A stretch of 64,000 nt of DNA from IMG/VR virus record IMGVR_UViG_3300026116_000038, one strand, 5' to 3'. Made by a program: the position numbers and the translations under genes. Positions 13,675 to 30,241 of the stretch are shown piece by piece; positions within the stretch are counted from its first letter, which is position 1, and each line of letters begins with the position of its first letter. The DNA is from an uncultured virus (IMG/VR IMGVR_UViG_3300026116_000038) (Duplodnaviria > Heunggongvirae > Uroviricota > Caudoviricetes). The notes beneath the pieces are model-generated. The model ran no database searches. It had not been told where the DNA came from and saw only the letters and a list, made by a program, of their open reading frames with translations.

Positions 13675-13679
13675 TTTAT

Positions 13680-13940: not shown

Positions 13941-13941
13941 T

Positions 13942-14205: not shown

Positions 14206-14206
14206 T

Positions 14207-14470: not shown

Positions 14471-14471
14471 T

Positions 14472-14735: not shown

Positions 14736-14736
14736 T

Positions 14737-15000
14737 ATGACTAAAGTATATTCTAAAATAGATGCATATGGAACTATTTTTTGGTATAAAGAAGGAACAA
14801 ATATTCGTCACAGAGAAGATGGTCCAGCTGTAGAATATGCTGATGGGTCTAATTTTTGGTATCAAAATGGAAAATATCATAGATTAAATGGACCTGCTAA
14901 AGTTTATTATAATGGATATAAAGAATATTATTTAAATGGAAAACATTATCCGGATATTAAAACTGATAAAGAATGGTTAATATTTTTAATTATAAATTAA
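14737..15000 (+). CDS. HRxDGPA repeat protein, family A
   Basis: 2 repeats plus conserved tail. Confidence 0.85.
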   Translation: MTKVYSKIDAYGTIFWYKEGTNIRHREDGPAVEYADGSNFWYQNGKYHRLNGPAKVYYNGYKEYYLNGKHYPDIKTDKEWLIFLIIN

Positions 15001-15001
15001 A

Positions 15002-15274
15002 ATGACTGCAGTATATTCTGAAATAGATGAATATGGAACTATTCGTTGGTGTAAAAAAGGTACATATCTTCTTCACAGAGAAGATGGACCAGCTAAAGAA
15101 TATGTTAATGGAACTGAATATTGGTATCAATACGGAAAACTTCACAGAGAAGATGGTCCTGCTATAGTATATTATAATGGATATAAAAAATATAAAGAAT
15201 ATTATCTAAATGATATTTATTATCCAGATATTTCTTCTGATGAGGAGTGGATAATATTTCAAATATTAAATTAA
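15002..15274 (+). CDS. HRxDGPA repeat protein, family A
   Basis: 2 repeats plus conserved tail. Confidence 0.85.
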   Translation: MTAVYSEIDEYGTIRWCKKGTYLLHREDGPAKEYVNGTEYWYQYGKLHREDGPAIVYYNGYKKYKEYYLNDIYYPDISSDEEWIIFQILN

Positions 15275-15275
15275 T

Positions 15276-15539
15276 ATGACAAAAGTATATTCTAAAATAG
15301 ATGCATATGGAAATATTTTTTGGTATAAAGAAGGAACAAATATTCTTCATAGAGAAGATGGTCCAGCTGTAGAGTTGTATTATGGCGGTAAAATGTGGTA
15401 CCAAAATGGAAAACGTCATAGAGAAGATGGTCCGGCAAAAGAATGGAATAATGGAGATAAAGAATATTGGTTAAATGGAAGATTTTATCCAGATATTAAA
15501 ACTGATAAAGAATGGCTTATTTATTTAATTATTAATTAA
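15276..15539 (+). CDS. HRxDGPA repeat protein, family A
   Basis: 2 repeats plus conserved tail. Confidence 0.85.
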   Translation: MTKVYSKIDAYGNIFWYKEGTNILHREDGPAVELYYGGKMWYQNGKRHREDGPAKEWNNGDKEYWLNGRFYPDIKTDKEWLIYLIIN

Positions 15540-15541
15540 AA

Positions 15542-15844
15542 ATGAAAAAACAAGAATGGAAAGATCCTTCAGGTCTTTTACATAGAAAAAATGGTCCAGC
15601 TGTAATTAATGGAAATGGCGATAAATTTTATTATGAGCATGGATTACTTCATAGATTAAATGGGCCAGCTATTATGTTAGCTAACGGTACTAAAATTTAT
15701 ATGCGAAGACATTTAATTCATAGAGATAATGGTCCAGCAGTAATCAAACCAAATGGCAAAAAGGAATTTTGGATTAATAATTTTCAACTTAAAAATATTA
15801 AATCTACCGCAGAATTAATTATTTATCTTTTAAATAAATATTAA
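15542..15844 (+). CDS. HRxxGPA repeat protein, divergent family A member
   Basis: 3 repeats; tail STAELIIYLLNKY. Confidence 0.8.
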   Translation: MKKQEWKDPSGLLHRKNGPAVINGNGDKFYYEHGLLHRLNGPAIMLANGTKIYMRRHLIHRDNGPAVIKPNGKKEFWINNFQLKNIKSTAELIIYLLNKY

Positions 15845-15892
15845 GATAATAATTTGTTATATGTTTATATAGATTTACAATAAAAGGATTTA

Positions 15893-16099
15893 ATGCCAGG
15901 AATTAAATGTCCAGTATGTCACTTTATTTTTAAGGATAGAGAGCGATTTGAAGAATCATGGGAAGATAAGCCTCACGAAAATTTAAAAGATTGTGTTATT
16001 TATTTGGGTAAAGTTAATCAAGAATTAATAGAATGTATCAATGAAATTGAAAATAGATTTCATTACGAAAAAGTTATGAGAAGAAAAATTTTAGATTGA
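15893..16099 (+). CDS. hypothetical protein (CxxC)
   Basis: ORF with AAGGA RBS. Confidence 0.55.
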   Translation: MPGIKCPVCHFIFKDRERFEESWEDKPHENLKDCVIYLGKVNQELIECINEIENRFHYEKVMRRKILD

Positions 16100-16124
16100 C
16101 AATTCATTAATTAATACTTATAAT
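16096..16124 (+). promoter_or_regulatory. consensus sigma70 promoter
   Basis: TTGACA-N17-TATAAT, perfect match. Confidence 0.8.
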
Positions 16125-16294
16125 ATATGAATGTTTTTAACAATTAAAGTATATTTACTTCCAATTATAATTATAAGTCAATTTATAATTAAAATTGCAA
16201 TAGTATTTTCACTATGGATTTTAATGATATGCTTAATATCATTTATGTATTTTTCTATTGAAGATTTTGTAAGAAAATATTTGAAGAGTGAATT

Positions 16295-16684
16295 ATGAAT
16301 AAACAAGAATTTGAAATACTAAAGTCGATTTTTCCCAAATCAAACATTAACAATATCGAAGATCTTTTAAATCATTCTAAAGATCCTTATGAATATAATT
16401 TTGTTTCAAATTGGGTTAATAATTGTAAAGAAATAGATATTGAAATAGAAATTCCTAAAAATGATTTAATTCTTGCTGCAATAAATGAAGAGTTAAATAC
16501 TGAGGGAATCCAATCTATTTTTGATGATGAGGGTAAGAAATTATTTTCATATTGTAATACGGGTGATGAATTTGGTATTACAGTAATGTATCATCATATT
16601 TCAGAAAAATTCATTTTAAGTTCTTTTATTAATATAATTGAAGCAATTGAAGAAGATATGTTAGAAATGTTTTTGTCTGATTAA
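16295..16684 (+). CDS. hypothetical protein
   Basis: ORF. Confidence 0.6.
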   Translation: MNKQEFEILKSIFPKSNINNIEDLLNHSKDPYEYNFVSNWVNNCKEIDIEIEIPKNDLILAAINEELNTEGIQSIFDDEGKKLFSYCNTGDEFGITVMYHHISEKFILSSFINIIEAIEEDMLEMFLSD

Positions 16685-16900
16685 ATGGAAAATATAGATT
16701 TAAATTATTTAGATCATAATTTTATTGTTATTCCGGATGATAATAACTTTATGATTGATGCATTTATATGTAGTAAATGTAATATAATTTGTTTTTTAAG
16801 TAAAACATTTAATATTTTTTATATATGTCAATATGATGGATATTTATCAGAGTTAAAATTAACTTGCAATGAAATAATAATTGAATCTATAATTGATTAG
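16685..16900 (+). CDS. small Zn-finger-like protein, family B
   Basis: HNF...CSKC...LTCNEIIIESIID. Confidence 0.7.
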   Translation: MENIDLNYLDHNFIVIPDDNNFMIDAFICSKCNIICFLSKTFNIFYICQYDGYLSELKLTCNEIIIESIID

Positions 16901-17141
16901 GAATATAAAAATGAAATTATCACACAAAGAAAAATTAGAAAAAAATAGATGATTTAATATCTAAACATGGTTGTTGTGATGAATCAGAAGTTCAGCATCA
17001 GATTGAATATCATAAAGATAATTTAATTGATAATTATAAAACAGTAATGAAAACATTAGATGAAATTGGTAAACTTCTTTGCTTGTCAGATGAAGAGATG
17101 GAAGAAATGTTTCCTTTTTTAAAAGAAGGTGAATAAATTAA

Positions 17142-17546
17142 ATGTATATTTTAATAATTTTATTACTATTAGGTTTTTCTATACCTGTAGCATACTTTTT
17201 AATTTCTTATTTATATAATTATGATAAATTAGAAAAGAAACCTAAGAAATTAGAATGGGTAACTGAAGAATTTGATGTAGGCAAGGTTGAAGTTACTATA
17301 ATTGATATAAATAATAATTCATTCAATAAAGTAATTATTGGAATTGTAGTTTATAAAAATGAACAAAATAAAACTCGCCCAATAATTATTGATGCAATAG
17401 ATCTATTTGAAAATACGATTTATGATTTCTATGCAAAAACTAGACTATTTCCTATAGATGAAGGTAGCTATATTCCTGAACATAGGATTAAACATATTAA
17501 ATCTTTCTATGAAGAATATTTTATAGAATTTTCTTATAATAAATGA
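17142..17546 (+). CDS. membrane-anchored hypothetical protein
   Basis: N-terminal hydrophobic helix. Confidence 0.6.
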   Translation: MYILIILLLLGFSIPVAYFLISYLYNYDKLEKKPKKLEWVTEEFDVGKVEVTIIDINNNSFNKVIIGIVVYKNEQNKTRPIIIDAIDLFENTIYDFYAKTRLFPIDEGSYIPEHRIKHIKSFYEEYFIEFSYNK

Positions 17547-17680
17547 AATCTAAAATTCATATGCAACTTGATGAAATGGAAAAATTAATAAATTTATGTT
17601 CTGCTTATTTATTAATAATGGAAATAAATAAATTGAGAAAAGAATTTCCACCTAAAATAGTTAAATAACAACAAATTAAT

Positions 17681-17938
17681 ATGTCTGATAGAAATGGATT
17701 AGTTATAGTATGTGGAAATAAATATTGGTATAAAGATAATGAATTTCATAGATTAGACGGGCCTGCTATAGAATATATAGATGGAACTACAATTTGGTAT
17801 CAAAATGGAATTGTTCATAGGAAAGATGGGCCAGCAGTAATATATGATAATGGTAAAAAGGAATATTGGTTAGATAATATTTATTATCCAGATGTTAATT
17901 CTGATGAAGAATGGTTAATATTTCAAATTATAAATTAA
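17681..17938 (+). CDS. HRxDGPA repeat protein, family A
   Basis: 2 repeats plus conserved tail. Confidence 0.85.
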   Translation: MSDRNGLVIVCGNKYWYKDNEFHRLDGPAIEYIDGTTIWYQNGIVHRKDGPAVIYDNGKKEYWLDNIYYPDVNSDEEWLIFQIIN

Positions 17939-17939
17939 T

Positions 17940-18272
17940 ATGACTAAAGTCTATTCTAGTATAGATAAATATAATAACATTCATTGGTATAAAGAAGGTA
18001 CAAATATTCGTCATAGGGATGACGGTCCAGCTATAGAATGTACCAATGGAACCAAATATTGGTATCAAAATGGTATCTTTCATAGAGAAAGTGGGCCCGC
18101 ATTAGAATTTTATGATGGAGAAAAGTGGTGGTGCTATGATGGAAAGCGTCATAGAATTGATGGCCCTGCTGTAGAATATGAAAATGGAGGAAAAGAATAT
18201 TGGTTAAATGGTAAATGGTATATAGATATTAACACTGATGAAGAGTGGTTAATATTTCAAATTATAAATTAA
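17940..18272 (+). CDS. HRxDGPA repeat protein, family A
   Basis: 3 repeats plus conserved tail. Confidence 0.85.
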   Translation: MTKVYSSIDKYNNIHWYKEGTNIRHRDDGPAIECTNGTKYWYQNGIFHRESGPALEFYDGEKWWCYDGKRHRIDGPAVEYENGGKEYWLNGKWYIDINTDEEWLIFQIIN

Positions 18273-18273
18273 T

Positions 18274-18675
18274 ATGACTAAAGTAGTTTGTAAAACAAAT
18301 GAACTTAGTAATCTTTATTGGTATAAAGAAGGTACTAATATTCTTCATAGGGAAGACGGACCAGCTGTAGAGTGTTCTAATGGAGGTAAGTTTTGGTATC
18401 AAAATGATCTATACCATAGAATAGATGGCCCAGCATTAGAGTGGAATGATGGAGAAAAACAATGGTTCAAAAATGGATTATGTCATAGAGAGAATGGCCC
18501 AGCAATAGAATGGATTAATGGTGATAAACATTGGTGTATTAATGGAGAAATTCATAGAATAGATGGTCCCGCTGTAGAATACATAAATGGAGATAAACAA
18601 TATTGGTTGAATAATAAATATTATCCAGATATTAAAACTGATGAAGAGTGGATTATATTTCAGATAATTAATTAA
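18274..18675 (+). CDS. HRxDGPA repeat protein, family A
   Basis: 4 repeats plus conserved tail. Confidence 0.85.
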   Translation: MTKVVCKTNELSNLYWYKEGTNILHREDGPAVECSNGGKFWYQNDLYHRIDGPALEWNDGEKQWFKNGLCHRENGPAIEWINGDKHWCINGEIHRIDGPAVEYINGDKQYWLNNKYYPDIKTDEEWIIFQIIN

Positions 18676-18677
18676 AA

Positions 18678-19010
18678 ATGACTAAAGTATATTCAAAAAA
18701 AGATAAATATGGAAATATTTATTGGTGTAAAGAAGGTACAAATATTCTTCATAGAGAAGATGGTCCAGCTATAGAATTTGTTGATGGAACTAAGCATTGG
18801 TATCAAAATGATATGTGGCATAGAGCTGATGGACCAGCTATAGAAAATAACTCTGGACATAAAGAATGGTACCAGAGTGAAAAATGTCATAGAACGGATG
18901 GTCCTGCTGTAATATGGCCTAATGGTGATAAAGAATATTGGTTAAATGATAAACCATACCCAAATATTAAAACTGATGAAGAATGGATTATATTTCAAAT
19001 TATAAATTAA
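18678..19010 (+). CDS. HRxDGPA repeat protein, family A
   Basis: 3 repeats plus conserved tail. Confidence 0.85.
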   Translation: MTKVYSKKDKYGNIYWCKEGTNILHREDGPAIEFVDGTKHWYQNDMWHRADGPAIENNSGHKEWYQSEKCHRTDGPAVIWPNGDKEYWLNDKPYPNIKTDEEWIIFQIIN

Positions 19011-19013
19011 GCC

Positions 19014-19042
19014 TTGACAAATTGATACGTAAGATCTATTAT
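19014..19042 (+). promoter_or_regulatory. sigma70 promoter for tRNA-Asn
   Basis: TTGACA-N17-TATTAT. Confidence 0.7.
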
Positions 19043-19057
19043 ATAGATAATAAACAT

Positions 19058-19130
19058 TCCAGCTTAGCTCAGTTGGTAGAGCAGGCGGCTGTTAACCGCC
19101 GGGTCCAAGGTTCGAGTCCTTGAGCTGGAG
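19058..19130 (+). tRNA. tRNA-Asn(GTT)
   Basis: TCCAGCT/AGCTGGA acceptor stem, GCTC/GAGC D-stem, GGCGG-CTGTTAA-CCGCC anticodon arm, TTCGAGT T-loop; followed by CTA, not CCA. Confidence 0.95.
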
Positions 19131-19155
19131 CTACTTTTTTAAATAGAAATAAAAA

Positions 19156-19566
19156 ATGGATAATAAAACAACATTAGATTTAGTTGATAATGTAATAAAC
19201 AAAATTAGCAATGGAGTAGAACATATAGCCAATTCCGTTGCTAAAGTTACTCCGGATGCTTGGAAAATTTTGGTCCATTATCAGCGGATGTTAGCAATAC
19301 AAGAAATCATTAAAGGCATTGGATATAGTGTAATTATTATGCTAATATTACTTGTTTATAAAAAATTAGTTTATAATATGTTTCTTAAACTTATTAAAAC
19401 TGATTCTTATTTTGTTTTTTCGCAAGCCATTTGCGGTGCAATTGTTTTAATTTTTTCTATGCTTCTTTTAAATGATAGTATAGATTTAATCTCTAATGGT
19501 ATTATAAGATATAATTCTCCAGATTATTTTGCTGTAAAAGAATTGATTACAACAATTACGAAATAA
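19156..19566 (+). CDS. membrane protein (2 TM)
   Basis: Two hydrophobic segments. Confidence 0.6.
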   Translation: MDNKTTLDLVDNVINKISNGVEHIANSVAKVTPDAWKILVHYQRMLAIQEIIKGIGYSVIIMLILLVYKKLVYNMFLKLIKTDSYFVFSQAICGAIVLIFSMLLLNDSIDLISNGIIRYNSPDYFAVKELITTITK

Positions 19567-19568
19567 TT

Positions 19569-20123
19569 ATGATTGATAAATTAAATGTAATTAAATATAT
19601 TGAAAATAGATTGAAATTAATTCAACGAAAACATAATTTTAATCCTAATTCTGGTAAAAAACAAATAAAGAATCTACCAGAATTAGAAGATGATTTTCTT
19701 ATATTTCAAGAATATATTAAATTAATTAAAAAATGTAAATTGAATATTCATATTAAATATGATCCATTAGGTTTGGATAAAAAATCTATTAGTAAAATTA
19801 AAAATAGAAAAACTCAAGTTTATTTTGCTAGACATTCGAATGATCCAACTATATGGAAAATTGGATTATCTATTGCTCCAAATAAACGAGTAAAAAATAT
19901 TCAAGTTGGTAATCCTGAGCATTTCCAAACAATTTACACAATAGATGGAAATCTAAAATTAAAAAATGCTATTAAATACTATACATCTAAATATCACTTA
20001 GATGGCGGAACTGAATGGCGCAGATTAGATGAAAACGTTATAAAAACTATAATTCAAAAAATTAAAGAATCAGGGACGAATTTTTTATATAAGTCTAAAT
20101 TAGATTTAAATATTAATTCTTGA
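19569..20123 (+). CDS. GIY-YIG-superfamily (T5orf172/MUG113-like) protein
   Basis: VYFAR....WKIGLS..PNKRVKNIQVGNP ... GTEW. Confidence 0.7.
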   Translation: MIDKLNVIKYIENRLKLIQRKHNFNPNSGKKQIKNLPELEDDFLIFQEYIKLIKKCKLNIHIKYDPLGLDKKSISKIKNRKTQVYFARHSNDPTIWKIGLSIAPNKRVKNIQVGNPEHFQTIYTIDGNLKLKNAIKYYTSKYHLDGGTEWRRLDENVIKTIIQKIKESGTNFLYKSKLDLNINS

Positions 20124-20173
20124 CATATACCCATTTACGATTTACATATAATACATAACCAATAAATAATATT

Positions 20174-22270
20174 ATGGAACCAGTTAAAAAATCCAACGCT
20201 CGTAAAACTTCAACCTCTGAAACGAAAGTGTATTCTTATGGAGCTTTTCTTCCTAAAGAATCAGAGCAAATTAAATTAATTAATGATCAATTATATTTTG
20301 CGCATAAATACCGAAACAAACTTGTAGAAATTGAACGAAAGCGTCGAAATCGCTTCCGTAACCTTCGTAAATTAATGTCACCAGAATTACGTCAGCTGGA
20401 AAACGATCTACTTCTCACTGAAGAGAAAATTATTGAATTACGTAAAAGTTTTGGCGGCCGTGCGGAAAATAGTTTAGATCCTAAATTTCCTAAAAAAAAT
20501 CGTCAGTTAACTCCGCAAGCTGTAGAAATTAAGGATTTAAAATTAAAGAAAAAAGATTTAAGTGCTAAGATTAAATCTATTCATACTCAATTAAATTTAG
20601 ATTATTTCAAAGAAGCTGATAGTAAATTTTCTCTTCTAAAGAAAGAACGCTTAGAACAAAAAGCTAAAGAATTAAATAAGGATTCTCTTGGTCCAAATGA
20701 TGTTAATCGTCACAATGTAGTGAATAATCTCTACAAAGAAATGATTGATGGTGGAAATAGGTTTTGGGCTATCAAAGCGAAAATTTCTAAATCAGCTGAA
20801 GCATCAAATAAACGAGCAAGAAGTAATTGCAAATGCTCAAGTGGAACTTATGTTAGTATTGAAGAGGCTGCAAAACAATCCTTTTCAAATTCTAAATTTG
20901 AGCCAAAATTTAAATCATTTGATGGTTCAGGAAAAATTGGCATGCAGCTTACTCAAAATAAAGGTCTGTCAATTAAAGATGCCCTAAGTGGGTCAAGTCC
21001 TGTTCTTAAGATTGATTTACATCCAGAAGTTTATTTACGGCAAAATAAAAAGAAAAATAAAGTTTTAGCTACAGCGCGCATTAAACTTTTTGGCACTGAA
21101 AAAACTGGAAAGTTTGTAGATATTCCTTTTATTATGCATCGCCAAATGCCAGAAGATGCTACAATTAAATGGGTATTTTTAGTTGTATCTAAAATTGGAT
21201 ATCGTAGTATTTATAATATTCAATTTACGATTGAGTCTAATTCATTTACTCAGCCTTCAGCTATTCGTCCAGATGATGTTGCTATTAATTTAGGATGGAA
21301 AGTAAATGATCAAACAGATGATATTACCGTTGCTACTAGCTTTGATGGTAAAAATTATAATGAATTAATTTTGCCTTCTAAGATGCGTGCAAATATAGTT
21401 TATAAAGAAACATTGATTAGTCATGCTGATAAACATTTTGATTCTGTTAAGAAAGATGTATCAAAATGGTTAAAGAATTCAAATTTAGATGAATGTATTA
21501 CGAAATATTTCACAAATTTGCCACAGTGGAGATCGCATAAAAAACTTCTATTCGTCTCTAAAGAATTAGCTAAAGTATTTTTACCAGATAATACTTGGTA
21601 TGATCTTTGGAAAAAATGGAAAACTCATTGTAAAGAAAATAAACCTTGGAAAAATTGTAGTGATAAAGATGATTTATTTACAACATTAGATAATACTATT
21701 CAGTGGTGTAAAGATAATTCGATTGATGATCCCAATGTTCAGATGGCTTTTTATTTAAAGACTTGGGCAGAAAAAGAAATTCATTTAATTAATTGGGCCC
21801 GTGGTATTGAATCAAAACTTCGAAAACATCGAAAAGAAATTTACCGTTGTTTTGCAAAGAAGTTATCTAGCACCTATGGAAAGGTTATCGTTGAAAACTG
21901 GGATAAATCTAAAACTGCCGAAACTCCTGATGTTGAAAATGATAATCGTACAAAGCAAGAAGAAAATGCTAATGCGGTGCGTCAATTTGTTGGAGTAAGT
22001 GTTTTAACTGACGCACTAAAGCAGAAATTTGGAAAAGATTTTTGTGAAGAAAACGCAAAAAATATTTCTAAAGAACATTTTAAATGTGGCGGAGAATTAA
22101 TTAATCAAAAAGAATTATCAGACGTACATTGTAAAAAATGTAATAAATCTGTAAACGTTAATTACAATGCGGCAGCTCACTTGTTTGATCGACATGGCGA
22201 GCGGTCTGGTGCTGTGAAATTACCCGGAACCGCTCGCAAAACACGTAAGTCACCAGAATTATTAGCTTAA
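20174..22270 (+). CDS. cas12m: type V CRISPR effector, Cas12m-like (V-M / V-U1 / C2c4), predicted DNase-inactive RuvC
   Basis: Motifs collinear with Cas12m as recalled: QLYFAHKYRNKLVEIE, FDGSGKIGMQL, DIPFIMHRQMP, VAINLGWK (RuvC-I, N372), QWRS, HRKEIYR, VIVENWD (E574), HxxC...CxxC Zn finger, NVNYNAA (RuvC-III, N663); CRISPR array immediately downstream. Confidence 0.85.
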   Translation: MEPVKKSNARKTSTSETKVYSYGAFLPKESEQIKLINDQLYFAHKYRNKLVEIERKRRNRFRNLRKLMSPELRQLENDLLLTEEKIIELRKSFGGRAENSLDPKFPKKNRQLTPQAVEIKDLKLKKKDLSAKIKSIHTQLNLDYFKEADSKFSLLKKERLEQKAKELNKDSLGPNDVNRHNVVNNLYKEMIDGGNRFWAIKAKISKSAEASNKRARSNCKCSSGTYVSIEEAAKQSFSNSKFEPKFKSFDGSGKIGMQLTQNKGLSIKDALSGSSPVLKIDLHPEVYLRQNKKKNKVLATARIKLFGTEKTGKFVDIPFIMHRQMPEDATIKWVFLVVSKIGYRSIYNIQFTIESNSFTQPSAIRPDDVAINLGWKVNDQTDDITVATSFDGKNYNELILPSKMRANIVYKETLISHADKHFDSVKKDVSKWLKNSNLDECITKYFTNLPQWRSHKKLLFVSKELAKVFLPDNTWYDLWKKWKTHCKENKPWKNCSDKDDLFTTLDNTIQWCKDNSIDDPNVQMAFYLKTWAEKEIHLINWARGIESKLRKHRKEIYRCFAKKLSSTYGKVIVENWDKSKTAETPDVENDNRTKQEENANAVRQFVGVSVLTDALKQKFGKDFCEENAKNISKEHFKCGGELINQKELSDVHCKKCNKSVNVNYNAAAHLFDRHGERSGAVKLPGTARKTRKSPELLA

Positions 22271-22276
22271 ATTTGG

Positions 22277-22305
22277 TTGACGTTTGCCTGAATCGTGACT
22301 ATAAT
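22277..22305 (+). promoter_or_regulatory. CRISPR leader promoter
   Basis: TTGACG-N17-TATAAT, 80 bp upstream of repeat 1; sets the array orientation as +. Confidence 0.8.
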
Positions 22306-22385
22306 CATTGCGTGATGGGGTGTAAACGTAACCTCTCGCAATGTGCTTCGTAGATCTTTGAAAATATAAGTAATTTTGATCGCCC

Positions 22386-23721
22386 GTTGGCAATAGAAGC
22401 TAACCTCTATAAGCGTTAGACCTGTAATAGATGTTGGCAGCCATTTTTGCACCCACTGTTGGCAATAGAAGCTAACCTCTATAAGCGTTAGACCGATTCT
22501 GCCATTACTTTCCAGCGGGATCTAAGTCGGTTGGCAATAGAAGCTAACCTCTATAAGCGTTAGACCGCATCCAAGTAGGCGCCAAGTTTATCCCCCTTGG
22601 TGTTGGCAATAGAAGCTAACCTCTATAAGAGTTAGACGACACTTTGAATCGAAATGCTCACGTTAGGTATGACTGCGTCAATAGAAGCTAACTTCTATAA
22701 AAGTTAGACTATGACGAACAGTGCAAAGGCGAAAACACACTAGGCAGTAATTTAATTACATCATCAATAGTAGCTAATCTCTATAAGAATTAGACAGATT
22801 GTGACAGAAATTTTAACAAAATAACAAACGTCAGCAATAGAAGCTAACCTTTATAAGAGTTAGGCTTGCGGCCAGTCACCAACGCAGTCTCCGGTTCTTA
22901 CGTTATCAACAATAGAAACTAACCTCTATAAGAGTTAGGCGGGCCTGGCGTCACTGAGGGCGGTCAGTAATAGAAACTAACCTCTATAAGAGTTTAGACG
23001 TGAGGATTAAATGATGGTGTCGAGTGCCACTCTCGACTGGCATCAATAGAAACTAACATCTATAAGAGTTAAATGCGTAAAGCTGCTGACCGATCAAAAA
23101 AATAGTGCGAAGTCAGCAATAGAAGCTAACCTCTCTAAGAGTTAGACGAAATGGTGATGGCAGACATCCTCCACCACATAGCGGCATCAATAGAAACTAA
23201 CCTCTATAAGAGTTAGACGGCCCTCCAACCGCAAATCGCGCGAAGCGGTCGATGTCAATAATAGAAGCTAACCTCTATGAGAGTTAGATTAGTCGTCCGA
23301 ATATCTTATTCTTTCTCACCGGCCCGTCAGTAATAGAAGCTAACCTCTATGAGAGTTAGGCAAATAATAGTCCACGTACTAGACATCATCGTCACCATAT
23401 TAGCAATAGAAACTAACCTCTATAAGAGTTAGGCCCGAGACTAAATGGTGGGATCGAGTGCCACTTTCAACAGCATCAATAGAAGCTAACCTCTATAAGA
23501 GTTAGACACGTTTCTCGTCGACATGATTAAATTTGGCTTCAACAAACAATATCAGCTAACTAATATAAGAATTAACGACAGTAAGAAGTTCAATCGCACT
23601 GAAACAAGATATTAAGTAATAGTTGCTAACTACTATAAATGTTAGACTACAACGGCGGTATCATGATGATATTTGAAAGATCAAGCAAATAATAGCAGCT
23701 AATCGCTAAAAAGAATTAGAC
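22386..23721 (+). CRISPR. CRISPR array, 19 repeats (36-bp consensus GTTGGCAATAGAAGCTAACCTCTATAAG(C/A)GTTAGAC) and 18 spacers (22-50 bp, mostly 34-39)
   Basis: Repeat starts approx. 22386, 22458, 22530, 22602, 22674, 22760, 22830, 22905, 22963, 23039, 23112, 23183, 23254, 23326, 23399, 23472, 23542, 23612, 23685. First three identical; later copies degenerate but keep the CTAAC/GTTAG hairpin. Confidence 0.95.
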
Positions 23722-23875
23722 CAGTTTCTGCACTATGCTGTTTATTAAATAATAAGCCGCTTGACAATGTAATTAAATACAGTACGAAGATTACGGATTG
23801 TAAATATCAGGTAACCGTAATAATATTTAAAGCAGATATTGTAATAATAACTTAATTATACCTTAAAATTAAAGT

Positions 23876-24580
23876 TTACTTGGATTTTAAATGTTTGCGA
23901 ATAGCATTATCACTTACACCTAATTTTCGTCCAACTGCTGAGTAATTAGATTCTGAAAGCATTTTCAATAATTCTTCATTTGAAGGCCATTGAATTTTAG
24001 TTTGACGGAAAAATTTGATTCTATCACGTAAATTTTCTCTATCTAAAAAATTAGATAATGCAGTAGAAGATACTTCTAACCATAAAGCTGTTTTATTTAA
24101 ATTAGTATTATTTATACTTTCAATAATTTTATTAATTTCTTCTTCAGTTTTATTGATTAATTCTTTACATATGTGACTTTTTAATTCAATATTAATAATA
24201 TGTTCATCGAAATTACTCATGTCTAAATGTGGATTATGATGATGAGTATGACATAGATGACATAATAATTGGCATTTTTCCACCTCAAGTGTTAATTCTT
24301 TTAAAGATCTATTTCCTAGGGACCTTCCATCAACATTAAATTTTTTTTTACTAGGGTCTATATGATGAAAAACTAATCCAGCCATGTTTTGTTTATACCC
24401 GCAAATTTCACAACATCCTCCCTTTTTATTTATAAAGTATAGTTTTCTATTGATTCCGCGGTCTTTTTGTATAGAATAATTATTATTTTTTGAATTAAAA
24501 TATTTTGTTTTACAAGTTTGTGAACAAAATTTTGATTGACAATTTTCAATTTCAGTATTACATATTACACATAAGTTCAT
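23876..24580 (-). CDS. HNH homing endonuclease-like protein with Zn ribbon and C-terminal HTH
   Basis: CEICGY...LVFHHIDP...KCQLLCHLCHTHHH; YSAVGRKLGVSDNAIRK; next to a tRNA gene. Confidence 0.85.
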   Translation of the reverse strand: MNLCVICNTEIENCQSKFCSQTCKTKYFNSKNNNYSIQKDRGINRKLYFINKKGGCCEICGYKQNMAGLVFHHIDPSKKKFNVDGRSLGNRSLKELTLEVEKCQLLCHLCHTHHHNPHLDMSNFDEHIINIELKSHICKELINKTEEEINKIIESINNTNLNKTALWLEVSSTALSNFLDRENLRDRIKFFRQTKIQWPSNEELLKMLSESNYSAVGRKLGVSDNAIRKHLKSK

Positions 24581-24649
24581 ACCATTCCTCTCGATGTTAT
24601 GAACTTATTCAGATTTATTAATAGATTTTATAAAGAATTTTAAAAACGC

Positions 24650-24678
24650 TTGACAATATAAGTTAATGAACTTAGACT
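24650..24678 (+). promoter_or_regulatory. sigma70 promoter for the tRNA-Ile2/tilS unit
   Basis: TTGACA-N17-TAGACT. Confidence 0.7.
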
Positions 24679-24698
24679 AAAGATAGTACAAACATTAC

Positions 24699-24776
24699 GG
24701 GCCGTTAGCTCAATAGGTCTAGAGCAAAAAACTCATAATTTTGAGGCTGTAGGTTCAAGTCCTACACGGCCCACCA
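24699..24776 (+). tRNA. tRNA with CAT anticodon, most likely tRNA-Ile2 (lysidine-modified)
   Basis: GGGCCGT/ACGGCCC acceptor with C4-G69 and C5-G68, A73, encoded CCA; loop CTCATAA; adjacent to tilS. Confidence 0.9.
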
Positions 24777-24802
24777 TTTTTAATAAAATGAAATTGGAGC
24801 AA

Positions 24803-24838
24803 AATATTAATATCAGCTAACCGATATAAGAGTTAGAT
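24803..24838 (+). repeat. orphan copy of the CRISPR repeat
   Basis: AATATTAATATCAGCTAACCGATATAAGAGTTAGAT; shares AATATCAGCTAAC with array repeat 17 and TATAAGAGTTAGA with most repeats. Confidence 0.8.
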
Positions 24839-24843
24839 AAAAA

Positions 24844-25536
24844 ATGAAACTCGAACGAAATATTCACAAAGCATTAACTGAATCAATTAATCGAAACTAT
24901 AAAACTCCTACTAAATTTACTTTAGGAGTATCTGGTGGTTCTGATTCACAATGTTTGCTTGTATCTTTTCCTCGAGTAGCAAGAGAATTGGGTCATGATT
25001 GTATTGCAGTAGGAATCAATCATGGTCTAAGAAATGAAGCTAATTCAGAACTTGATTTAGCAGAAAATCTTGCTTTAAAAATCAATGTTCCTTTTTATCG
25101 CAAGGTGGTAAAAGTGATTGATGGTCCGGAAGGAATACAATCACATGCAAGGAAAGCAAGATATGATGCATTGTTTGAATATGGCAATGTAATAGTAACT
25201 GCACATCATTTTGACGATTATGCAGAGACTGTTATGATCAGACTTTTGCGTGGTAAAAATATTGGCTCATTAAATGTTTTGCCAGAAGTGTCTAATAATG
25301 GTATTGGAATTTTCAGGCCATTACTCTCTGTACCTAAAAACAGAATTTTAGCACATTTAAAGCGGTGGAATATTTTATATGCAAATGATCCGTCAAATGA
25401 GAATATGGATTATTTAAGAGTTAAAGTTAGAAAAGAAATTCTACCTTTATTAGAAAGTATTAATCCTCAAATTAAAAATAGACTGGTAGAAATTTCACAA
25501 GAATTACAAATTGGAAATCAATTAAATAATTTATAA
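24844..25536 (+). CDS. tilS: tRNA(Ile)-lysidine synthetase (catalytic domain only)
   Basis: GVSGGSDS PP-loop, NHGLR, ARKARY, TAHHFDDYAET, RPLL, DPSN..R..VR. Confidence 0.92.
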   Translation: MKLERNIHKALTESINRNYKTPTKFTLGVSGGSDSQCLLVSFPRVARELGHDCIAVGINHGLRNEANSELDLAENLALKINVPFYRKVVKVIDGPEGIQSHARKARYDALFEYGNVIVTAHHFDDYAETVMIRLLRGKNIGSLNVLPEVSNNGIGIFRPLLSVPKNRILAHLKRWNILYANDPSNENMDYLRVKVRKEILPLLESINPQIKNRLVEISQELQIGNQLNNL

Positions 25537-25915
25537 TGGAAAAATTTATTGTTATACTTATAGTTTTAATATTACTTATTTTTATATATTTAAATATACG
25601 AACTAAGCTACGTGGAAGATGTAAAAATTGTGGATGTAAAACTACTCGAGCTTATTGTTGGTATTGTGAAATAGGTATAAATAAATGAAAAACGAAGATT
25701 ATATAACAAAAGAAGAATTATTATCTATTCTTAATAAAATAGAAGATAGGGCTAGATTATATAATAATTTAGAAACAAAATATAATCCTGTTTTGGAAGC
25801 TAAAATTTCTATTTGTTCAGAATTAATACAATTGTTAACATTCAATAAAATATTATATTAAATATAATTAATCTTTAGATTTAATTATAAAAAACTTTGA
25901 GAATATATTTATTAG

Positions 25916-26152
25916 ATGAAATATAAAATCAAAATGAAACCGAATAATTATAATAGAAATTATTATACAAGTGATTGTGGTATTTTTACTGCTTATTATT
26001 CTACATATTGTGGTTTACATAATGTAAGTGGCCCGGCGATAAAATATCATGATGAAAGATTTTTTTATAAAAACGAATATTGGTTAAACAATATTCATTA
26101 TTCAGATATAAAAAATGATGAAGAGTGGTTAATATTTCAAATAATTAATTGA
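25916..26152 (+). CDS. family A member with a single repeat
   Basis: HNVSGPA plus tail [12 protein letters not shown]. Confidence 0.75.
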   Translation: MKYKIKMKPNNYNRNYYTSDCGIFTAYYSTYCGLHNVSGPAIKYHDERFFYKNEYWLNNIHYSDIKNDEEWLIFQIIN

Positions 26153-26155
26153 AAA

Positions 26156-26428
26156 ATGATTAAAATATACAGCAAAGAATTTGAAAATCGCATTGAATGG
26201 TATAAAGAAAATGATAATGAAGGATATTTGATCTACCATAGAGAAGATGGTCCGGCAATAGAATGGTATGATGGAACAAAATGGTGGTATCAAAATGGAA
26301 GACGCCACAGAACAGATGGTCCTGCTATAGAATGCATTGATGGTCGTAAAGCATATTATTTATATGGGAAACATTATCCAGATATTAAAACTGATGAAGA
26401 ATGGGTTATATTCCAAATATTAAATTAA
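26156..26428 (+). CDS. HRxDGPA repeat protein, family A
   Basis: 2 repeats plus tail. Confidence 0.85.
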   Translation: MIKIYSKEFENRIEWYKENDNEGYLIYHREDGPAIEWYDGTKWWYQNGRRHRTDGPAIECIDGRKAYYLYGKHYPDIKTDEEWVIFQILN

Positions 26429-26757
26429 TGACAAAAATATATTCAAAAATAGAGTATTGTAATATTTATTGGTATAAAGAAGGTACAGATATTTTACATA
26501 GAGAAGATGGTCCGGCTGTAGAATATGCTGATGGAGAAAAGCGATGGTACCAAAATGGGAAAATTCACAGAGTAGATGGTCCAGCAATAGAATATCCTAA
26601 TGGAAGTAGATGGTGGGTTATTAATGGACAGTTTCATAGGACAGATGGTCCAGCTTTAGAAATGAAGAATAGTTATAAGCAATATTGGTTGTATGGAAAT
26701 GAATATTCAAATATTCACTCTGACGAAGAGTGGATTATATTTCAAATATTAAATTAA
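26428..26757 (+). CDS. HRxDGPA repeat protein, family A
   Basis: Start adjusted to MTKIYS (TAATG overlap); 3 repeats plus tail. Confidence 0.85.
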   Translation: MTKIYSKIEYCNIYWYKEGTDILHREDGPAVEYADGEKRWYQNGKIHRVDGPAIEYPNGSRWWVINGQFHRTDGPALEMKNSYKQYWLYGNEYSNIHSDEEWIIFQILN

Positions 26758-26758
26758 T

Positions 26759-27091
26759 ATGACAAAAGTTTATTCAAAAACAGATAAATACGGAAATATT
26801 TTTTGGTATAAAGAAGGTACAACTATTCTTCATAGAGAAGATGGCGCTGCTGTAGAATATTTTAATGGTAATAAATATTGGTATCAATATGGATTGCTTC
26901 ATAGAAAAAATGGTCCAGCAATAGAATTTTCTAATGGTGATAAATGTTGGTATCAAAATGGATTATGCCATAGAGTTGATGGTCCAGCAATGGAATCCCC
27001 AAATGAATATAAAAGTTATTTTTTAAATGGAAAAGATTATCCAGATATTCAAACTGATGAAGAATGGTTAATATTTCAAATAGTGAATTAA
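26759..27091 (+). CDS. HRxDGPA repeat protein, family A
   Basis: 3 repeats plus tail. Confidence 0.85.
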   Translation: MTKVYSKTDKYGNIFWYKEGTTILHREDGAAVEYFNGNKYWYQYGLLHRKNGPAIEFSNGDKCWYQNGLCHRVDGPAMESPNEYKSYFLNGKDYPDIQTDEEWLIFQIVN

Positions 27092-27106
27092 AAAAATCGC
27101 TAAGAG

Positions 27107-27135
27107 TTGACAATTAAATATTATTAATTTATAAT
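27107..27135 (+). promoter_or_regulatory. consensus sigma70 promoter
   Basis: TTGACA-N17-TATAAT, perfect match. Confidence 0.8.
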
Positions 27136-27144
27136 AAATTCATT

Positions 27145-27714
27145 ATGAATGATAAAGAATTTTCAAGATTAGAAGCATTATTTAATTTAGCAATAAATAA
27201 TTCTGATATAAATGAAGTAAGAAACGCTTCAGTTTTATTTGTAAAAATGATTAAACATCATAATTTACTTTCATCTATTAAAAATACAATTATTAATTCA
27301 AACGATTTTAAACCCAAGGAATCAAATTCAAATAATAAAAAAAATTCATCAAAAAATGTAAATGAAGAAGATTTATATAATGAAGAAGATTCATATAATG
27401 AAGAAGATTCATATAATGAAAATTATAGATATTTATCATTTAAACATATTAATTATAATTTTCTAATTTCAACTAAATGTGTAACTATAGTTGACTATAT
27501 TATTAAATTTTTAAAACACAATAAACTTAATTATAATAAAAGTTATATTATAAGTGTAACACAAATTACAAATATAGCTTTAAAAGATCTAATAATTAAT
27601 TATAATGAAATAAGTAAATTTACAAAATATATTAAAGTTCAATTAAATGACGCCGTGCTTCATAATGAATTGATTGGAATTCGTGGAAGAAATGGCGGAT
27701 ATACTCTTAAATGA
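27145..27714 (+). CDS. hypothetical protein with NEEDSY repeats and a C-terminal Rrf2-like wing motif
   Basis: 18-bp tandem repeats at 27361-27420; ends GIRGRNGGYTLK. Confidence 0.55.
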   Translation: MNDKEFSRLEALFNLAINNSDINEVRNASVLFVKMIKHHNLLSSIKNTIINSNDFKPKESNSNNKKNSSKNVNEEDLYNEEDSYNEEDSYNENYRYLSFKHINYNFLISTKCVTIVDYIIKFLKHNKLNYNKSYIISVTQITNIALKDLIINYNEISKFTKYIKVQLNDAVLHNELIGIRGRNGGYTLK

Positions 27715-28637
27715 TAAATAAAAACAATAATATTCTTTTACGAATTGCTCAAGCTGATGCATATGCTATTTGTGTAGAATATATTGATCAATTAAAATAT
27801 CAAGATTTGTTTATTGAAGCATTAAATTTTAAGTCATATTTACAACATCCTAAGTATAATAAATTACTTCCTGGTTATTATACAGATGATACTCAGCAAT
27901 CTATAGCAATTTCTGAAGTTTTAATAAATAAAGGAACAAACGTTAATTCTGATGATTTTTTGTATTCATTTTTATCTTGTTTTAAACGAGACGAAAGAGA
28001 TGGGTATTCTAGAAATTTTCAAAGCATTCTGGAAAAAGCTAATTCGGTAAATGAATTAAAGAAATTAATTAATACAGATTCAAATAGTAATGGAGCCGCT
28101 ATGAGATCTGTGCCATTAGGGATTATTAAAAATCCATTAGATATAATTAATATAGCTAAAATTCAAGCGGCTACAACTCATAATACAAATAATGCGATTC
28201 AATCATCCATATTAGTCGGATTAATGAGCCACTTTTCTTTATATAAAAATGATTCTTTTAAATATTTAAATGAATGGATAAGTGATTATAAATTATTTAT
28301 TGATTGGAATTTATTTAAATATAATTTTTTATTGCCTTGGAATGGAATTGTTCATAAAAATAAAAATGATCCAAAAAATTTAGGAATAGGAATAAATACT
28401 GCTCATGCTGTCAATACTTTATTAATTGAAGAAAATAGCTTAATAGGCATGATGAAAAGAATTATTAATTGGGGAGGAGATACAGATTCAGTAGCTTCTA
28501 TAGCTTGGGGAATTGCTTCTTCTAGGTATCAAGATGAAATATTACCGCAATTTATGGAAAATGATTTAGAAAATAATACATACGGTTCTAATTTTCTCAA
28601 AAAATTAGGAACACAATTAATGAATATAAATATATAA
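27711..28637 (+). CDS. ADP-ribosylglycohydrolase (DraG/ARH family)
   Basis: YTDDTQQS, SNGAAMRSVP, TH, GGDTDSVAS. Confidence 0.9.
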   Translation: MINKNNNILLRIAQADAYAICVEYIDQLKYQDLFIEALNFKSYLQHPKYNKLLPGYYTDDTQQSIAISEVLINKGTNVNSDDFLYSFLSCFKRDERDGYSRNFQSILEKANSVNELKKLINTDSNSNGAAMRSVPLGIIKNPLDIINIAKIQAATTHNTNNAIQSSILVGLMSHFSLYKNDSFKYLNEWISDYKLFIDWNLFKYNFLLPWNGIVHKNKNDPKNLGIGINTAHAVNTLLIEENSLIGMMKRIINWGGDTDSVASIAWGIASSRYQDEILPQFMENDLENNTYGSNFLKKLGTQLMNINI

Positions 28638-28702
28638 TTACAGTATTACTTTAATTTAAATGTGAGAATATTTAATTATTTCACAAAGTTGACATTTTAA
28701 TT

Positions 28703-29689
28703 ATGAATACTTATGATAAAAATGTGATTGATTCGATTCTAAAATCATTTAAAATTCGCGGACATTGTAAAGATGTTAAAGAGCATCGTCATTATAAATT
28801 ATATGATATTGAACTAGATCCTGGGCAATCTATTAAAAAGATTGAAGCTAATGCTCGTGAAATTGGTTTAGCTTTACGGAGTTTGACAATTCCCATTGTT
28901 ACTACTATTTCCGGTAGTGGAATAGTTAGGCTTCAGGTAGCTACCAGAACTGCTGATATGATAAATTTTGATGAATTATATGAGCGAAGCATTAATAGTA
29001 GACCTGATGGATTATTAACATTTTTATTGGGAGAGCAGGCTACTGGAGAACCTATATGGTTGGATATGGCAACTAATCCTCATATGTTGGTTGCTGGTAC
29101 TACAGGTTCTGGTAAAAGTGTATTTCTTCATACATTAATTGCAAACATTAAAAAGCGTAATGATGTAATGCTTTATTTGGTTGATCCTAAAAATGGAGTA
29201 GAGTTTGGAAAATATGTAAGAGATTGTAATTCCATTGTATATAATTATAATGGTGTTATTAAAATGTTGAAATTATTAGCTGAAGAAATTGAAGAACGAT
29301 ATAATTTATTTAGAATATTAGGTATTAAAAGTTTAAATGAAAGTCCTTTTGTTGTGCCTAAAATTATGGTAATTATTGATGAAGTATCTGATTTAATGTT
29401 ACAAGATGATAACGGACAGTTTGAGGAGCTTTTAATTAAAATCTCTCAGAAGAGTAGGGCTGTAGGTTGTCATATGGTATTAGCTACCCAAAGACCTAGC
29501 GTTGATGTTTTAACGGGATTAATTAAAGCTAATTTTCCTGCTAGAGTTGCTTGTAAAGTTAGTTCGGTTATTGATTCAAAGGTAATTATTGATCAAAGTG
29601 GAGCTGAACATTTAATGGGTAAAGGTGATGCAATTTTGAATTGTAATCAATTTTCTAATGTACGATTTCAGATAGCATATAGTTCTTAA
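28703..29689 (+). CDS. FtsK/SpoIIIE-family ATPase (no TM or gamma domain)
   Basis: PHMLVAGTTGSGKS, DPK, IIDEVSDL, LATQRPSVDV, GAEHLMGKGD. Confidence 0.9.
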   Translation: MNTYDKNVIDSILKSFKIRGHCKDVKEHRHYKLYDIELDPGQSIKKIEANAREIGLALRSLTIPIVTTISGSGIVRLQVATRTADMINFDELYERSINSRPDGLLTFLLGEQATGEPIWLDMATNPHMLVAGTTGSGKSVFLHTLIANIKKRNDVMLYLVDPKNGVEFGKYVRDCNSIVYNYNGVIKMLKLLAEEIEERYNLFRILGIKSLNESPFVVPKIMVIIDEVSDLMLQDDNGQFEELLIKISQKSRAVGCHMVLATQRPSVDVLTGLIKANFPARVACKVSSVIDSKVIIDQSGAEHLMGKGDAILNCNQFSNVRFQIAYSS

Positions 29690-29717
29690 TTCTTAATTCT
29701 TAATTCTTAATTTTTAA
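29683..29717 (+). repeat. 7-bp tandem repeat (TTCTTAA x4 plus TTTTTAA)
   Basis: Read directly; joins the FtsK stop to the next ATG. Confidence 0.85.
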
Positions 29718-29977: not shown

Positions 29978-29978
29978 T

Positions 29979-30240: not shown

Positions 30241-30241
30241 A

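Follow-up and report, generated by a model that had tools for sequence, protein, structure and literature searches.

A putative type V-M CRISPR locus with an N-E-N Cas12m-like effector in an AT-rich huge phage

An open reading frame of 698 codons and an adjoining CRISPR array are found at positions 20174–23721 of a 64,000-nt stretch (termed the window) of IMGVR_UViG_3300026116_000038, an IMG/VR record of an uncultured virus. This locus is probably a working or recently working type V-M system, i.e. one in which RNA-guided binding would silence a target without cutting it. The effector is a member of the Cas12m family (type V-M, formerly V-U1), as judged by sequence profiles and a predicted fold. 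Processing of the CRISPR RNA (crRNA), binding that depends on a protospacer adjacent motif (PAM), and silencing are inferred from that family. The host element is an AT-rich huge soil phage of ~390 kb (the effector protein is recorded on a 390,274-bp contig), and the GC content of the window is 0.287 (~29%).

The effector and its RuvC residues

The cas12m-like gene is an intact open reading frame with an ATG start at positions 20174–22270 (plus strand) and encodes 698 aa, as the initial annotation, made from the sequence alone, had stated. A promoter-like TTTACA-18-AATAAT precedes the start codon (20141–20170, plus strand; a consensus match only, 10/12 positions). Pfam and NCBIfam models gave only weak matches, at the C-terminal end: a Cas12f1-like TNB domain (E-value = 0.021) and IS607_TnpB (NF038280, E-value = 0.009), the latter with 15 bits against a cut-off of 350. 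A phmmer search of PDB sequences showed 23vw_A first (E-value = 3.2e-31), then Cas12m2 (1.9e-8) and GoCas12m entry 8pm4 (9.7e-6).

A family profile made from 14 homologues of the effector was run against the PDB sequences. Its top five matches are the Cas12m proteins of solved structures and extend end to end (E-values 1.6e-136, 6.3e-80, 1.3e-71, 7.9e-69 and 1.3e-68). The remaining matches, to TnpB-like, Fanzor-like and Cas12f proteins, are 1.4e-9 or weaker and cover the C-terminal RuvC/TNB part only; PDB TnpB was matched at 2e-4. The PADLOC Cas12u1 model gave an E-value of 2e-66, and a model labelled Cas12f scores equally (1.5e-67).

The AlphaFold2 model of the protein (149 aligned relatives) has a mean pLDDT of 92.1 and a pTM of 0.89. 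Foldseek ranks 1–4 are Cas12m2 and GoCas12m, with target-normalised TM scores of 0.73, 0.72, 0.68 and 0.69. The best Cas12f scores are 0.46–0.54, and other Cas12 and TnpB structures reach 0.54 at most. Identity with CasPhi or CasLambda was considered and rejected, with TM scores of 0.23 (7m5o) and 0.31 (8dc2), respectively, and no sequence match. A TnpB of the IS200/IS605–IS607 type was also rejected: the likeness is C-terminal only, an array is present, and no Pfam transposase family was found among the 46 window open reading frames of at least 120 aa.

The Cas12m domains (WED, REC coiled coil, RuvC with a helical insertion, and TNB zinc finger) were named by alignment and not by inspection of coordinates. 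The zinc finger residues HCCC are present (H635/C638/C653/C656). A pair of residues in the WED domain, H322/R323, aligns with the ‘hr’ pair of Cas12m2, which is equated here with His269/Arg270; among 155 relatives the first column is H in 151 and the second is R in all 155. The likeness to Cas12m, proposed in the initial annotation from the order of the motifs, is supported by the solved-structure matches, the Cas12u1 model, the fold, the repeat structure, a locus layout shared with relatives and the lack of adaptation genes in the sequence searched. Profile and structure searches against Cas12m and TnpB showed a full-length match to Cas12m only.

N372 is encoded by AAT at 21287–21289 and E574 by GAA at 21893–21895; N661 (22154–22156) and N663 (22160–22162) are part of the motif NVNYNAA. 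The HMMER alignment sets N372, E574 and N663 at the RuvC-I, RuvC-II and RuvC-III positions of solved Cas12m proteins. The aligned motifs of the window protein and 23vw_A are aiNlgw/aiDlgw, vivEnwd/ivlEeft and NvNyNAA/DqDyNAA, and N372 also aligns with the H of ‘alHlgw’ in Cas12m2, which is His317 in the numbering of the paper. Codons and alignment to the solved Cas12m proteins therefore agree on the N-E-N reading that had been proposed for this protein. Column 663, the second D of the DxD motif and two residues before NAA, is taken here to be the catalytic RuvC-III position on the basis of the HAD-x-NAA motif of TnpB and Cas12f. Consistent with this, N663 opens the last long helix of the AlphaFold2 model. 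The set was said to differ from the H-D-D set of the characterised enzyme, and the triad of Cas12m2 is indeed H317/D485/D579, with one Mg ion holding the non-target strand (Omura et al. 2023, PMC10442227).

An exhaustive profile search gave 3,347 cluster representatives at E ≤1e-30. Residues were counted in a set of 155 sequences, consisting of the 14 profile homologues and the new ones among the best 150 of the 3,347. The RuvC-I residue is D in 98, N in 53, H in 2, Q in 1 and E in 1; the RuvC-II residue is E in 115, D in 12, G in 10, A in 5, K in 3, S in 2, and others in 8. The first D of the RuvC-III DxD motif is D in 150 sequences and N in 5, and the second is D in 153 and N in 2. An N at both DxD positions is found in the window protein alone.

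In a FastTree phylogeny (572 columns, midpoint root) the sister of the window protein is P0002 (48% identity, support 0.998). Both are inside a clade of 16 (support 0.992), which widens to a group of 20 long proteins (median length ~719 aa). All six sequences with any N in DxD are within this 20-member clade, with none among the other 135, and N is found at RuvC-I in 18/20 clade members, the commonest clade triad being N-E-D (10/20). This suggests that the ~700-aa clade sheds RuvC carboxylates stepwise, and the window protein appears to be the extreme case. The alignment also displays extra stretches at positions ~140–205 and ~460–520 that are filled only by the window protein and its six closest homologues (P0002–P0007); by position, these are placed in the REC coiled coil and in the RuvC helical subdomain.

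N at RuvC-I is already known, and N at RuvC-III is new here. Supplementary tables aside, no report of an N-E-N Cas12m or of the ~700-aa clade was found in the literature, and the 134 variants of Bigelyte et al. (2024) may include clade members. Cas12m clades have been described by triad as HEK/HQK, HDD, DED/NED, and DED/DND/NED (PMC10442227).

The window protein departs from 7 of 48 highly conserved columns (clade range 1–7, family median 2); the departures other than the RuvC asparagines are R304K, R376K, R487K, R385T and Q662V. GC content of the gene is 31.6%, and that of third codon positions is 18.6%, which suggests that the gene has long been resident in an AT-rich lineage. Changes of D to N (GAY to AAY) and of R to K are of the kind that AT pressure favours. 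Thus a plain explanation of N-E-N is relaxed constraint on the RuvC residues together with AT bias.

The initial annotation stated that Cas12m lacks DNase activity and acts by binding. This applies to every tested Cas12m, whatever its triad, in the published accounts (PMC11013384, PMC10442227, PmCas12m preprint). Orthologues with D-E-D, H-D-D and N-D-D triads bound PAM-flanked double-stranded DNA (dsDNA) and left it uncut (Bigelyte et al. 2024, PMC11013384), PmCas12m, an N-D-D enzyme, also binds without cutting (PmCas12m preprint), and restoration of D-E-D in Cas12m2 gave no cleavage (PMC10442227). With two of the three RuvC carboxylates gone (N372 and N663), cleavage by the window protein is even less likely than in these tested relatives.

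The repeat array, its RNA scaffold and its spacers

The gene is followed by a leader of 115 nt (22271–22385, plus strand, 40% GC), in which the leader promoter named in the initial annotation, TTGACG-N17-TATAAT, is present at 22277–22305. It is the best sigma-70-like match in the region 19900–25000, with 11/12 positions; promoter-like sites as such are not enriched in that region (20 versus 23.2 in shuffles). The array itself (22386–23721, plus strand) has a period of ~72 nt, and a count gave the 19 repeats that had been reported.

A repeat consists of a variable 5′ part of 6 nt and a 30-nt core, with the consensus AATAGAAGCTAACCTCTATAAGAGTTAGAC. R1–R3 are identical, R4 is one base off and R5–R16 differ at 0–5 core positions; R1–R16 are well conserved, and R17–R19 are degenerate, with 6–9/30 differences from the R4 core (R19 was counted by eye). 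Spacers are 22–50 nt in length, mostly 34–39 nt. Past the array end there is a weak repeat-like remnant (23803–23832, plus strand, 74% identity to the reference copy), which is unconvincing alone. No anti-repeat was found, the minus strand of the window being without a core copy at ≤9 mismatches.

The core is predicted to form two interleaved helices, ATAGA/TCTAT (positions −29 to −25 with −16 to −12) and CTAAC/GTTAG (−22 to −18 with −7 to −3). In 18 distinct repeat copies, 93.3% of the helix cells pair, compared with 21%–39% when the partners are slid by 1–3 columns. Three helix pairs have changed on both sides, giving 7 double-change cells, and 0/500 shuffles reach this count. (R9 and R19 have one-base insertions that MAFFT placed at the end, and these were therefore counted against pairing there.) The compensatory changes keep both helices and point to selection on the repeat RNA. 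The helix positions are within 1–2 bases of those of PmCas12m (−28 to −26 with −17 to −15, and −23 to −20 with −6 to −3), and the repeat carries C(−1), A(−2), G(−23) and A(−24), the nucleotides named for Cas12m2, in which His269/Arg270 read C(−1) and G(−23) of the crRNA (PMC10442227).

Eleven related loci have different repeat sequences and the same structural plan. In 11 of 13 repeats (2 from the window and 11 from the related loci) the 3′ arm of helix 2 ends at −3; shuffle tests on the 13 single repeats are moderate, with 0–101 of 300 shuffles reaching the score. The repeat core is a Cas12m two-helix pseudoknot scaffold. That the 6 bases ahead of the core vary freely agrees with cleavage of the precursor immediately 5′ of the scaffold, the site reported for the family.

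Spacers S1–S16 have a mean GC of 0.48 (range 0.24–0.77) and the window 0.287; the spacers thus appear foreign to the phage. A further IMG/VR record of 131 kb (termed G001, estimated 31% complete) is of the same phage and is not an independent copy: 13,452 of its bases are 100% identical to window positions 17895–31346. Spacer searches of G001 matched the array itself and a solo repeat (described below) only. Because of the GC difference (48% versus 29%) and the lack of a match in these 131 kb of phage genome, the targets are probably foreign DNA, i.e. other mobile elements or the host. Self-targeting was not seen: outside the array, spacer matches in the window are 14 nt long at most. S9 (23000–23038) and S15 (23435–23471) are 82% identical over 33 nt, which would be expected if two variants of a single target had each been captured.

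The whole array (22386–23760) gave no blastn match at E ≤1 in 50,697 phage records, 72,556 plasmids and 20,395 E. coli records. With 28 nt of S03 as an exact query, only the phage itself was matched in IMG/VR; a degenerate S09/S15 pattern likewise matched only the phage itself there, and nothing in genome_contigs.

Cas1, Cas2 and Cas4, said in the initial annotation to be absent from the window, were not found by Pfam among the 46 window open reading frames or by six-frame searches of G001, a scope of about one third of the genome, with the longer open reading frames alone covered in window positions 1–17894.

Natural variants of the locus were read from contigs of three sequencing runs, X2 (soil, from another study), X3 and X4; a further run, X1, is probably the source sample. 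Run X3 may be of RNA and has a few 151-nt contigs. The effector gene in X2 is 95.6% identical (90 differences in 2044 bases). Contigs from X2 and X3 display repeats that flank spacers foreign to the window: one spacer of 36 nt is in both runs and one of 32 nt is in X2. One X2 contig skips positions 22735–23258; joints inside a repeat array are error-prone, and those read here have sides of only 29–65 nt. Because the novel spacers lie between good repeats, the data indicate that spacer content differs between phage variants, which is a new point. The variant spacers fit gain and loss of guides. Acquisition of spacers in trans, as proposed earlier for this phage, is not directly supported, and the sole data that bear on it are these differences between natural variants.

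In the proposed mechanism, the leader promoter would transcribe the array, and the effector would bind the 30-nt pseudoknot core and trim the precursor 5′ of it, which would leave the 6 upstream repeat bases free to vary. Pre-crRNA cleavage by MsCas12m needs Mg, and a RuvC-I mutant had no effect on it (PMC11013384); in the accounts as a whole, processing is unaffected by the RuvC-I and RuvC-II mutants tested (PMC10442227, PMC11013384, PmCas12m preprint). The complex of crRNA and protein would then bind PAM-flanked matching dsDNA and stay there without cutting, and the bound complex would block transcription or replication of the target. Cas12m orthologues protect E. coli from plasmids and phage (PMC11013384).

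Several observations weigh against a working, binding-only system. The array is unusually degenerate, as only 3/19 repeats are identical and spacers vary from 22 to 50 nt, and this could mean partial decay. No protospacer was found for any spacer in the collections scanned (S03, S09 and S15 individually, the others via blastn). The D661 and D663 columns are ~97%–99% D in the family, i.e. these aspartates matter to the family. N-E-N might weaken binding and not merely confirm a dead enzyme, since the RuvC residues of Cas12m2 hold the non-target strand via Mg and the mutant D485A shows weaker binding and silencing (PMC10442227). The loss of D663 could also affect crRNA processing, as the published tests mutated RuvC-I and RuvC-II and not RuvC-III, and processing by MsCas12m needs Mg. 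Finally, capsid (Gp23) and terminase (Terminase_6N) genes were not found in the 131-kb G001; the Gp23 control matched nowhere.

A rival reading is that of a decaying relic, with a non-functional effector and a drifting array of no use to the phage. We consider this improbable. It would account for the repeats beyond R1–R3 no longer being identical (R17–R19 are 6–9/30 off), for the 7/48 departures from conserved columns, a number (≥7) that only 8/155 sequences reach, for the window protein being alone in having N at both DxD positions, and for the absence of a spacer target in the scans. However, the frame of 698 codons is intact, and three of the seven departures are conservative R-to-K changes. 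Both helices are kept by compensatory changes, evidence of selection acting on the RNA; the leader promoter is an 11/12 match, and the gene is kept at 95.6% identity in a variant of another study. Spacer content differs between variants and therefore points to turnover, not just decay.

Since the RuvC-III aspartates are near-invariant in a family that leaves DNA uncut, the natural N-E-N protein is a ready test of their role, which could be to hold the non-target strand through a metal or to process the crRNA. A naturally dead, AT-adapted Cas12m brings little as a tool that the characterised orthologues do not already offer.

The solo repeat in the tilS leader and the phage context

A single repeat copy is present downstream of the array, in front of a tilS-like gene, and it is the sole copy outside the array within G001, including the share of the window. 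The region begins with a promoter-like TTGACA-17-TAGACT (24650–24678, 10/12), which is followed by a tRNA with anticodon CAT (24699–24776; the two together span 24650–24776, plus strand). Next is an imperfect upstream copy of the tilS start region (24783–24808, plus strand), located after a TTA at 24780–24782 and identical at 20/26 positions to 24839–24864. The solo repeat core, AATATCAGCTAACCGATATAAGAGTTAGAT, is at 24809–24838 (plus strand) and ends 5 nt ahead of the tilS ATG. Both of its helices are intact, with a compensatory change in helix 1 (ATATC/GATAT, changed on both sides). Repeat R17 of the array trailer shares the AATATCAG variant with it. The gene that follows (24844–25536, plus strand) encodes a 230-aa protein with the TilS N-terminal domain only (PP-loop E-value = 1.3e-40; TIGR02432 141.8 bits versus a cut-off of 93.6).

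The first bases of the tilS region, from 24839, take the spacer position after the solo repeat. The local alignment of the direct copies has a score of 28, which 0/2000 shuffles reach; the same test at 18 array repeats gave scores of 9–14. Four of the five in-frame base differences between the copies are synonymous (TTG/CTC, GAG/GAA), and the fifth is Gln/Arg.

A 2,584-nt contig from X2 (depth 6.1) covers 23478–24782 and resumes at 24839, so that exactly 24783–24838 is absent; these 56 nt comprise precisely the upstream copy and the core. The tilS start of X2 thus comes directly after TTTTTA, which results in a 5′-TTA flank, a type that published Cas12m proteins use as PAM. None of the 40 listed X2 differences is in 24839–24869 (another 155 across the whole stretch are outside the list); the list includes 24 of the 30 differences counted for that piece, and these all fall at or beyond 24870. 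The presence of a solo repeat in the tilS 5′ leader, and its absence from a sibling variant, is a new point.

The tRNA(CAT) adjoins the TilS protein, and the two are probably a phage-supplied tRNA-Ile2/lysidine synthetase pair for AUA codons in a genome of 29% GC; an AT-rich phage probably needs such a tRNA(CAT)-tilS operon to read AUA codons.

Three readings of the solo repeat can be given. First, it would make the tilS 5′ end, carried on a Cas12m-bound RNA, a fixed guide against insertion-free sibling phages, in which the guide would match perfectly behind a TTA. The carrier would be spared: at its true copy the repeat stands in place of the PAM, and its upstream copy differs from the guide at positions 2, 12, 14, 17 and 19. 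If true, the outcome would be that the tRNA(CAT)-tilS operon of a competitor is silenced in an allele-specific way, but it is a doubtful proposal. Second, the solo repeat may regulate its own operon via the mismatched upstream copy. Delocalised crRNAs of V-K transposons are known, as are partial-match self-regulators such as tracr-L and CreR, and the upstream mismatched guide copy presumably resembles natural self-regulators of this partial-match kind. Third, recombination or copy-choice with the array nearby may have produced it as a neutral side effect.

Another rival reading makes the locus mainly a gene regulator and not an interference system, with guides (that of the solo repeat in the tilS leader included) that tune phage or host genes. 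Such a role agrees with the position of the intact repeat, which follows a promoter-like box and tRNA(CAT) and ends 5 nt short of the tilS ATG, and with the would-be-guide copy upstream (20/26, after TTA); binding-only effectors also suit regulation. Yet none of the 19 array spacers is matched elsewhere in the window or the 131-kb record, their GC of 0.48 is unlike that of the phage, and a natural variant does without the solo repeat; a role mainly in regulation is about as improbable as a relic. An active nuclease, or a transposon-borne TnpB beside a chance repeat array, is extremely improbable: to the weak C-terminal matches to IS607_TnpB (0.009) and Cas12f1-like TNB (0.021) and the retained E574 are opposed full-length matches to Cas12m only, asparagine at two of three catalytic carboxylates, non-cutting by tested D-E-D members of the family (PMC11013384), an adjacent, co-oriented array with the repeat type of the family, and the absence of Pfam transposase families among the 46 open reading frames scanned.

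The stretch from the array to the tRNA contains an HNH endonuclease gene (23876–24580, minus strand; PHROG HNH E-value = 2e-18). Direct copies, 21 nt in length, of the CGCTTGACAAT... promoter-like box are found on either side of the gene (23758–23778 and 24647–24667, 86% alike), and it looks like a free-standing homing-endonuclease insertion. A short X4 contig joins 23738 to 24641 with 13 other letters and thus suggests a variant without the HNH gene; with a depth of 2.7 and a shorter side of 48 nt, this is weaker evidence.

The jumbo phage context described in the initial annotation (rIIA/B, ligase, tRNAs) was recovered. The window has genes for RIIA (E-value = 5e-80), RIIB (5e-65), a helicase, a ligase, Thg1, an FtsK-like protein and HNH endonucleases, as well as two tRNAs, besides which Rfam gave nothing. 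The best match of RIIA among GenBank phages is in a 462-kb uncultured phage. With neither Gp23 nor Terminase_6N found in G001, the assignment to a phage is based on RIIA/RIIB and the other phage genes, the IMG/VR classification as a viral record, and this RIIA match. A search for relatives of the phage in IMG/VR, by an exact scan with the tilS start and by the TilS protein, gave the same record only.

Other genes in the window include tandem paralogous small genes of ~85–135 aa at 337–1254, 13887–15539, 17681–19010, 25916–27091, 29716–31103 and 35025–36340. They contain 69-nt (23-aa) repeats (YWYKEG...HREDGPAIE), and each has the end ...DEEW(L/I)IFQI(I/L)N; tandem periods are 265–404 nt with identities of 71%–77%, and one weak match to DUF6745 was seen (E-value = 5e-6). 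A UvrD-like helicase of 739 aa (6469–8688) displays a weak Hint_2 match at residues 274–317 (E-value = 3e-4, under the cut-off) between helicase motifs, and this stretch may be an intein. Auxiliary genes encode a cREC_REC receiver protein, an ADP-ribosylglycohydrolase and a Thg1-like tRNA-His guanylyltransferase (10650–11024, 27711–28637 and 55408–56223).

Relation to known systems

Eight other IMG/VR contigs encode relatives of the effector (21%–35% identity), with an array beside the gene in 6/8 and a GC content of the loci of 56%–69%. Eight other metagenome loci also encode relatives, with arrays in 7/8, two of those loci being near-duplicates. The arrays of these viral and metagenome loci are usually just downstream of the gene, and the repeats of the related metagenome arrays that were printed are identical or nearly so, unlike those of the window array. 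Only three distant matches (21%–22% identity) were obtained in genome_contigs, in metagenome-assembled genomes of Gemmatimonadales, Polyangiaceae and Pirellulales, the search pattern limiting what such a scan finds and making it a poor guide to hosts.

Two other loci, L024 and L027, show features of separate interest. In L024, a 182-kb metagenome contig (35% GC), a second, degenerate mini-array is found upstream of the cas12m-like gene and on the opposite strand (4480–4760, minus strand); it has ~5 repeats with spacers of ~14–16 nt and displays the compensatory helix-2 changes CCGGC/GCCGG, CTGGC/GCCAG, TCGGT/ACCGG and CTAGT/ACTAG. In L027, a solo repeat (2565–2600, 4 mismatches to the array repeat) lies ~270 nt beyond the end of the array; a TTGACA-like box precedes it, and an ATG follows ~90 nt further on. 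The flank duplication of the L027 solo repeat is not significant (466/2000 shuffles reach the score), and duplication is not shown to be general.

V-M systems have already been reported in plasmids, prophages and viral genomes, and landfill metagenomes contain viral proteins that group with Cas12m (PMC12607003). Together with the N at RuvC-I in 53/155 sequences, the published N-E-D and N-D-D triads and the eight other IMG/VR relatives, this makes the window locus a variant of an already known virus-borne V-M type, and less unusual than the initial annotation held. For the binding-only Cas12m family, it adds a longer ~700-aa subclade, here in a huge AT-rich phage.

Of the characterised proteins, Cas12m2/MmCas12m (8hhl) and GoCas12m (8pm4) match the family profile at 7.9e-69 and 1.3e-71, with TM scores of 0.73 and 0.72. 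The shared features are the WED His/Arg pair, the HCCC zinc finger, a single crRNA with a pseudoknot scaffold of ~30 nt, and the lack of adaptation genes. In contrast to these, the window protein is ~100 aa longer, has N-E-N and not H-D-D, shows low direct similarity (E-value = 1.9e-8), and is encoded by a huge phage and not a bacterium. The closest solved relative is 23vw_A, a ‘CRISPR-associated DNA-binding protein Cas12m’ of 577 aa, which the profile matches over almost its whole length (1.6e-136) and whose motifs correspond one to one; its D, E and D-x-D are aligned with N, E and N-x-N of the window protein. CasPhi (Cas12j) and CasLambda resemble the locus in that a single effector of ~700 aa is accompanied by an array without adaptation genes in a huge phage; CasPhi and CasLambda are active nucleases.

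The Cas12m proteins with N-D-D or N-E-D triads (PmCas12m; clades 3 and 4 of Omura et al. 2023; two of the set of Bigelyte et al. 2024) share the N at RuvC-I. They keep the RuvC-III aspartate, whereas the window protein has N663 and also N661. MvCas12m of myxophage MV-1 (bioRxiv 10.64898/2026.09.14.751636) is likewise encoded by a phage beside an array, without cas1, cas2 or cas4 and with no spacer targets found. It is a D-E-D protein of 610 aa with one consensus repeat and 8 spacers, in contrast to the 19 degenerate repeats found here in an AT-rich huge phage.

The solo repeat can be compared with the viral mini-arrays and solitary repeat units described in a review (PMC11656645). In both cases a single repeat is found outside an array, on a mobile element and by a tRNA gene, and may make one fixed guide. 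The repeat unit described there is that of the host, whereas here it is the repeat of the phage's own effector; in addition, the tilS 5′ end is in the spacer position here, and the unit is present or absent between natural variants. A degenerate yet structured array, variant spacers and a solo repeat together offer a natural system on guide renewal without Cas1-Cas2, and the same locus lets one ask whether phages use single fixed guides against close relatives.

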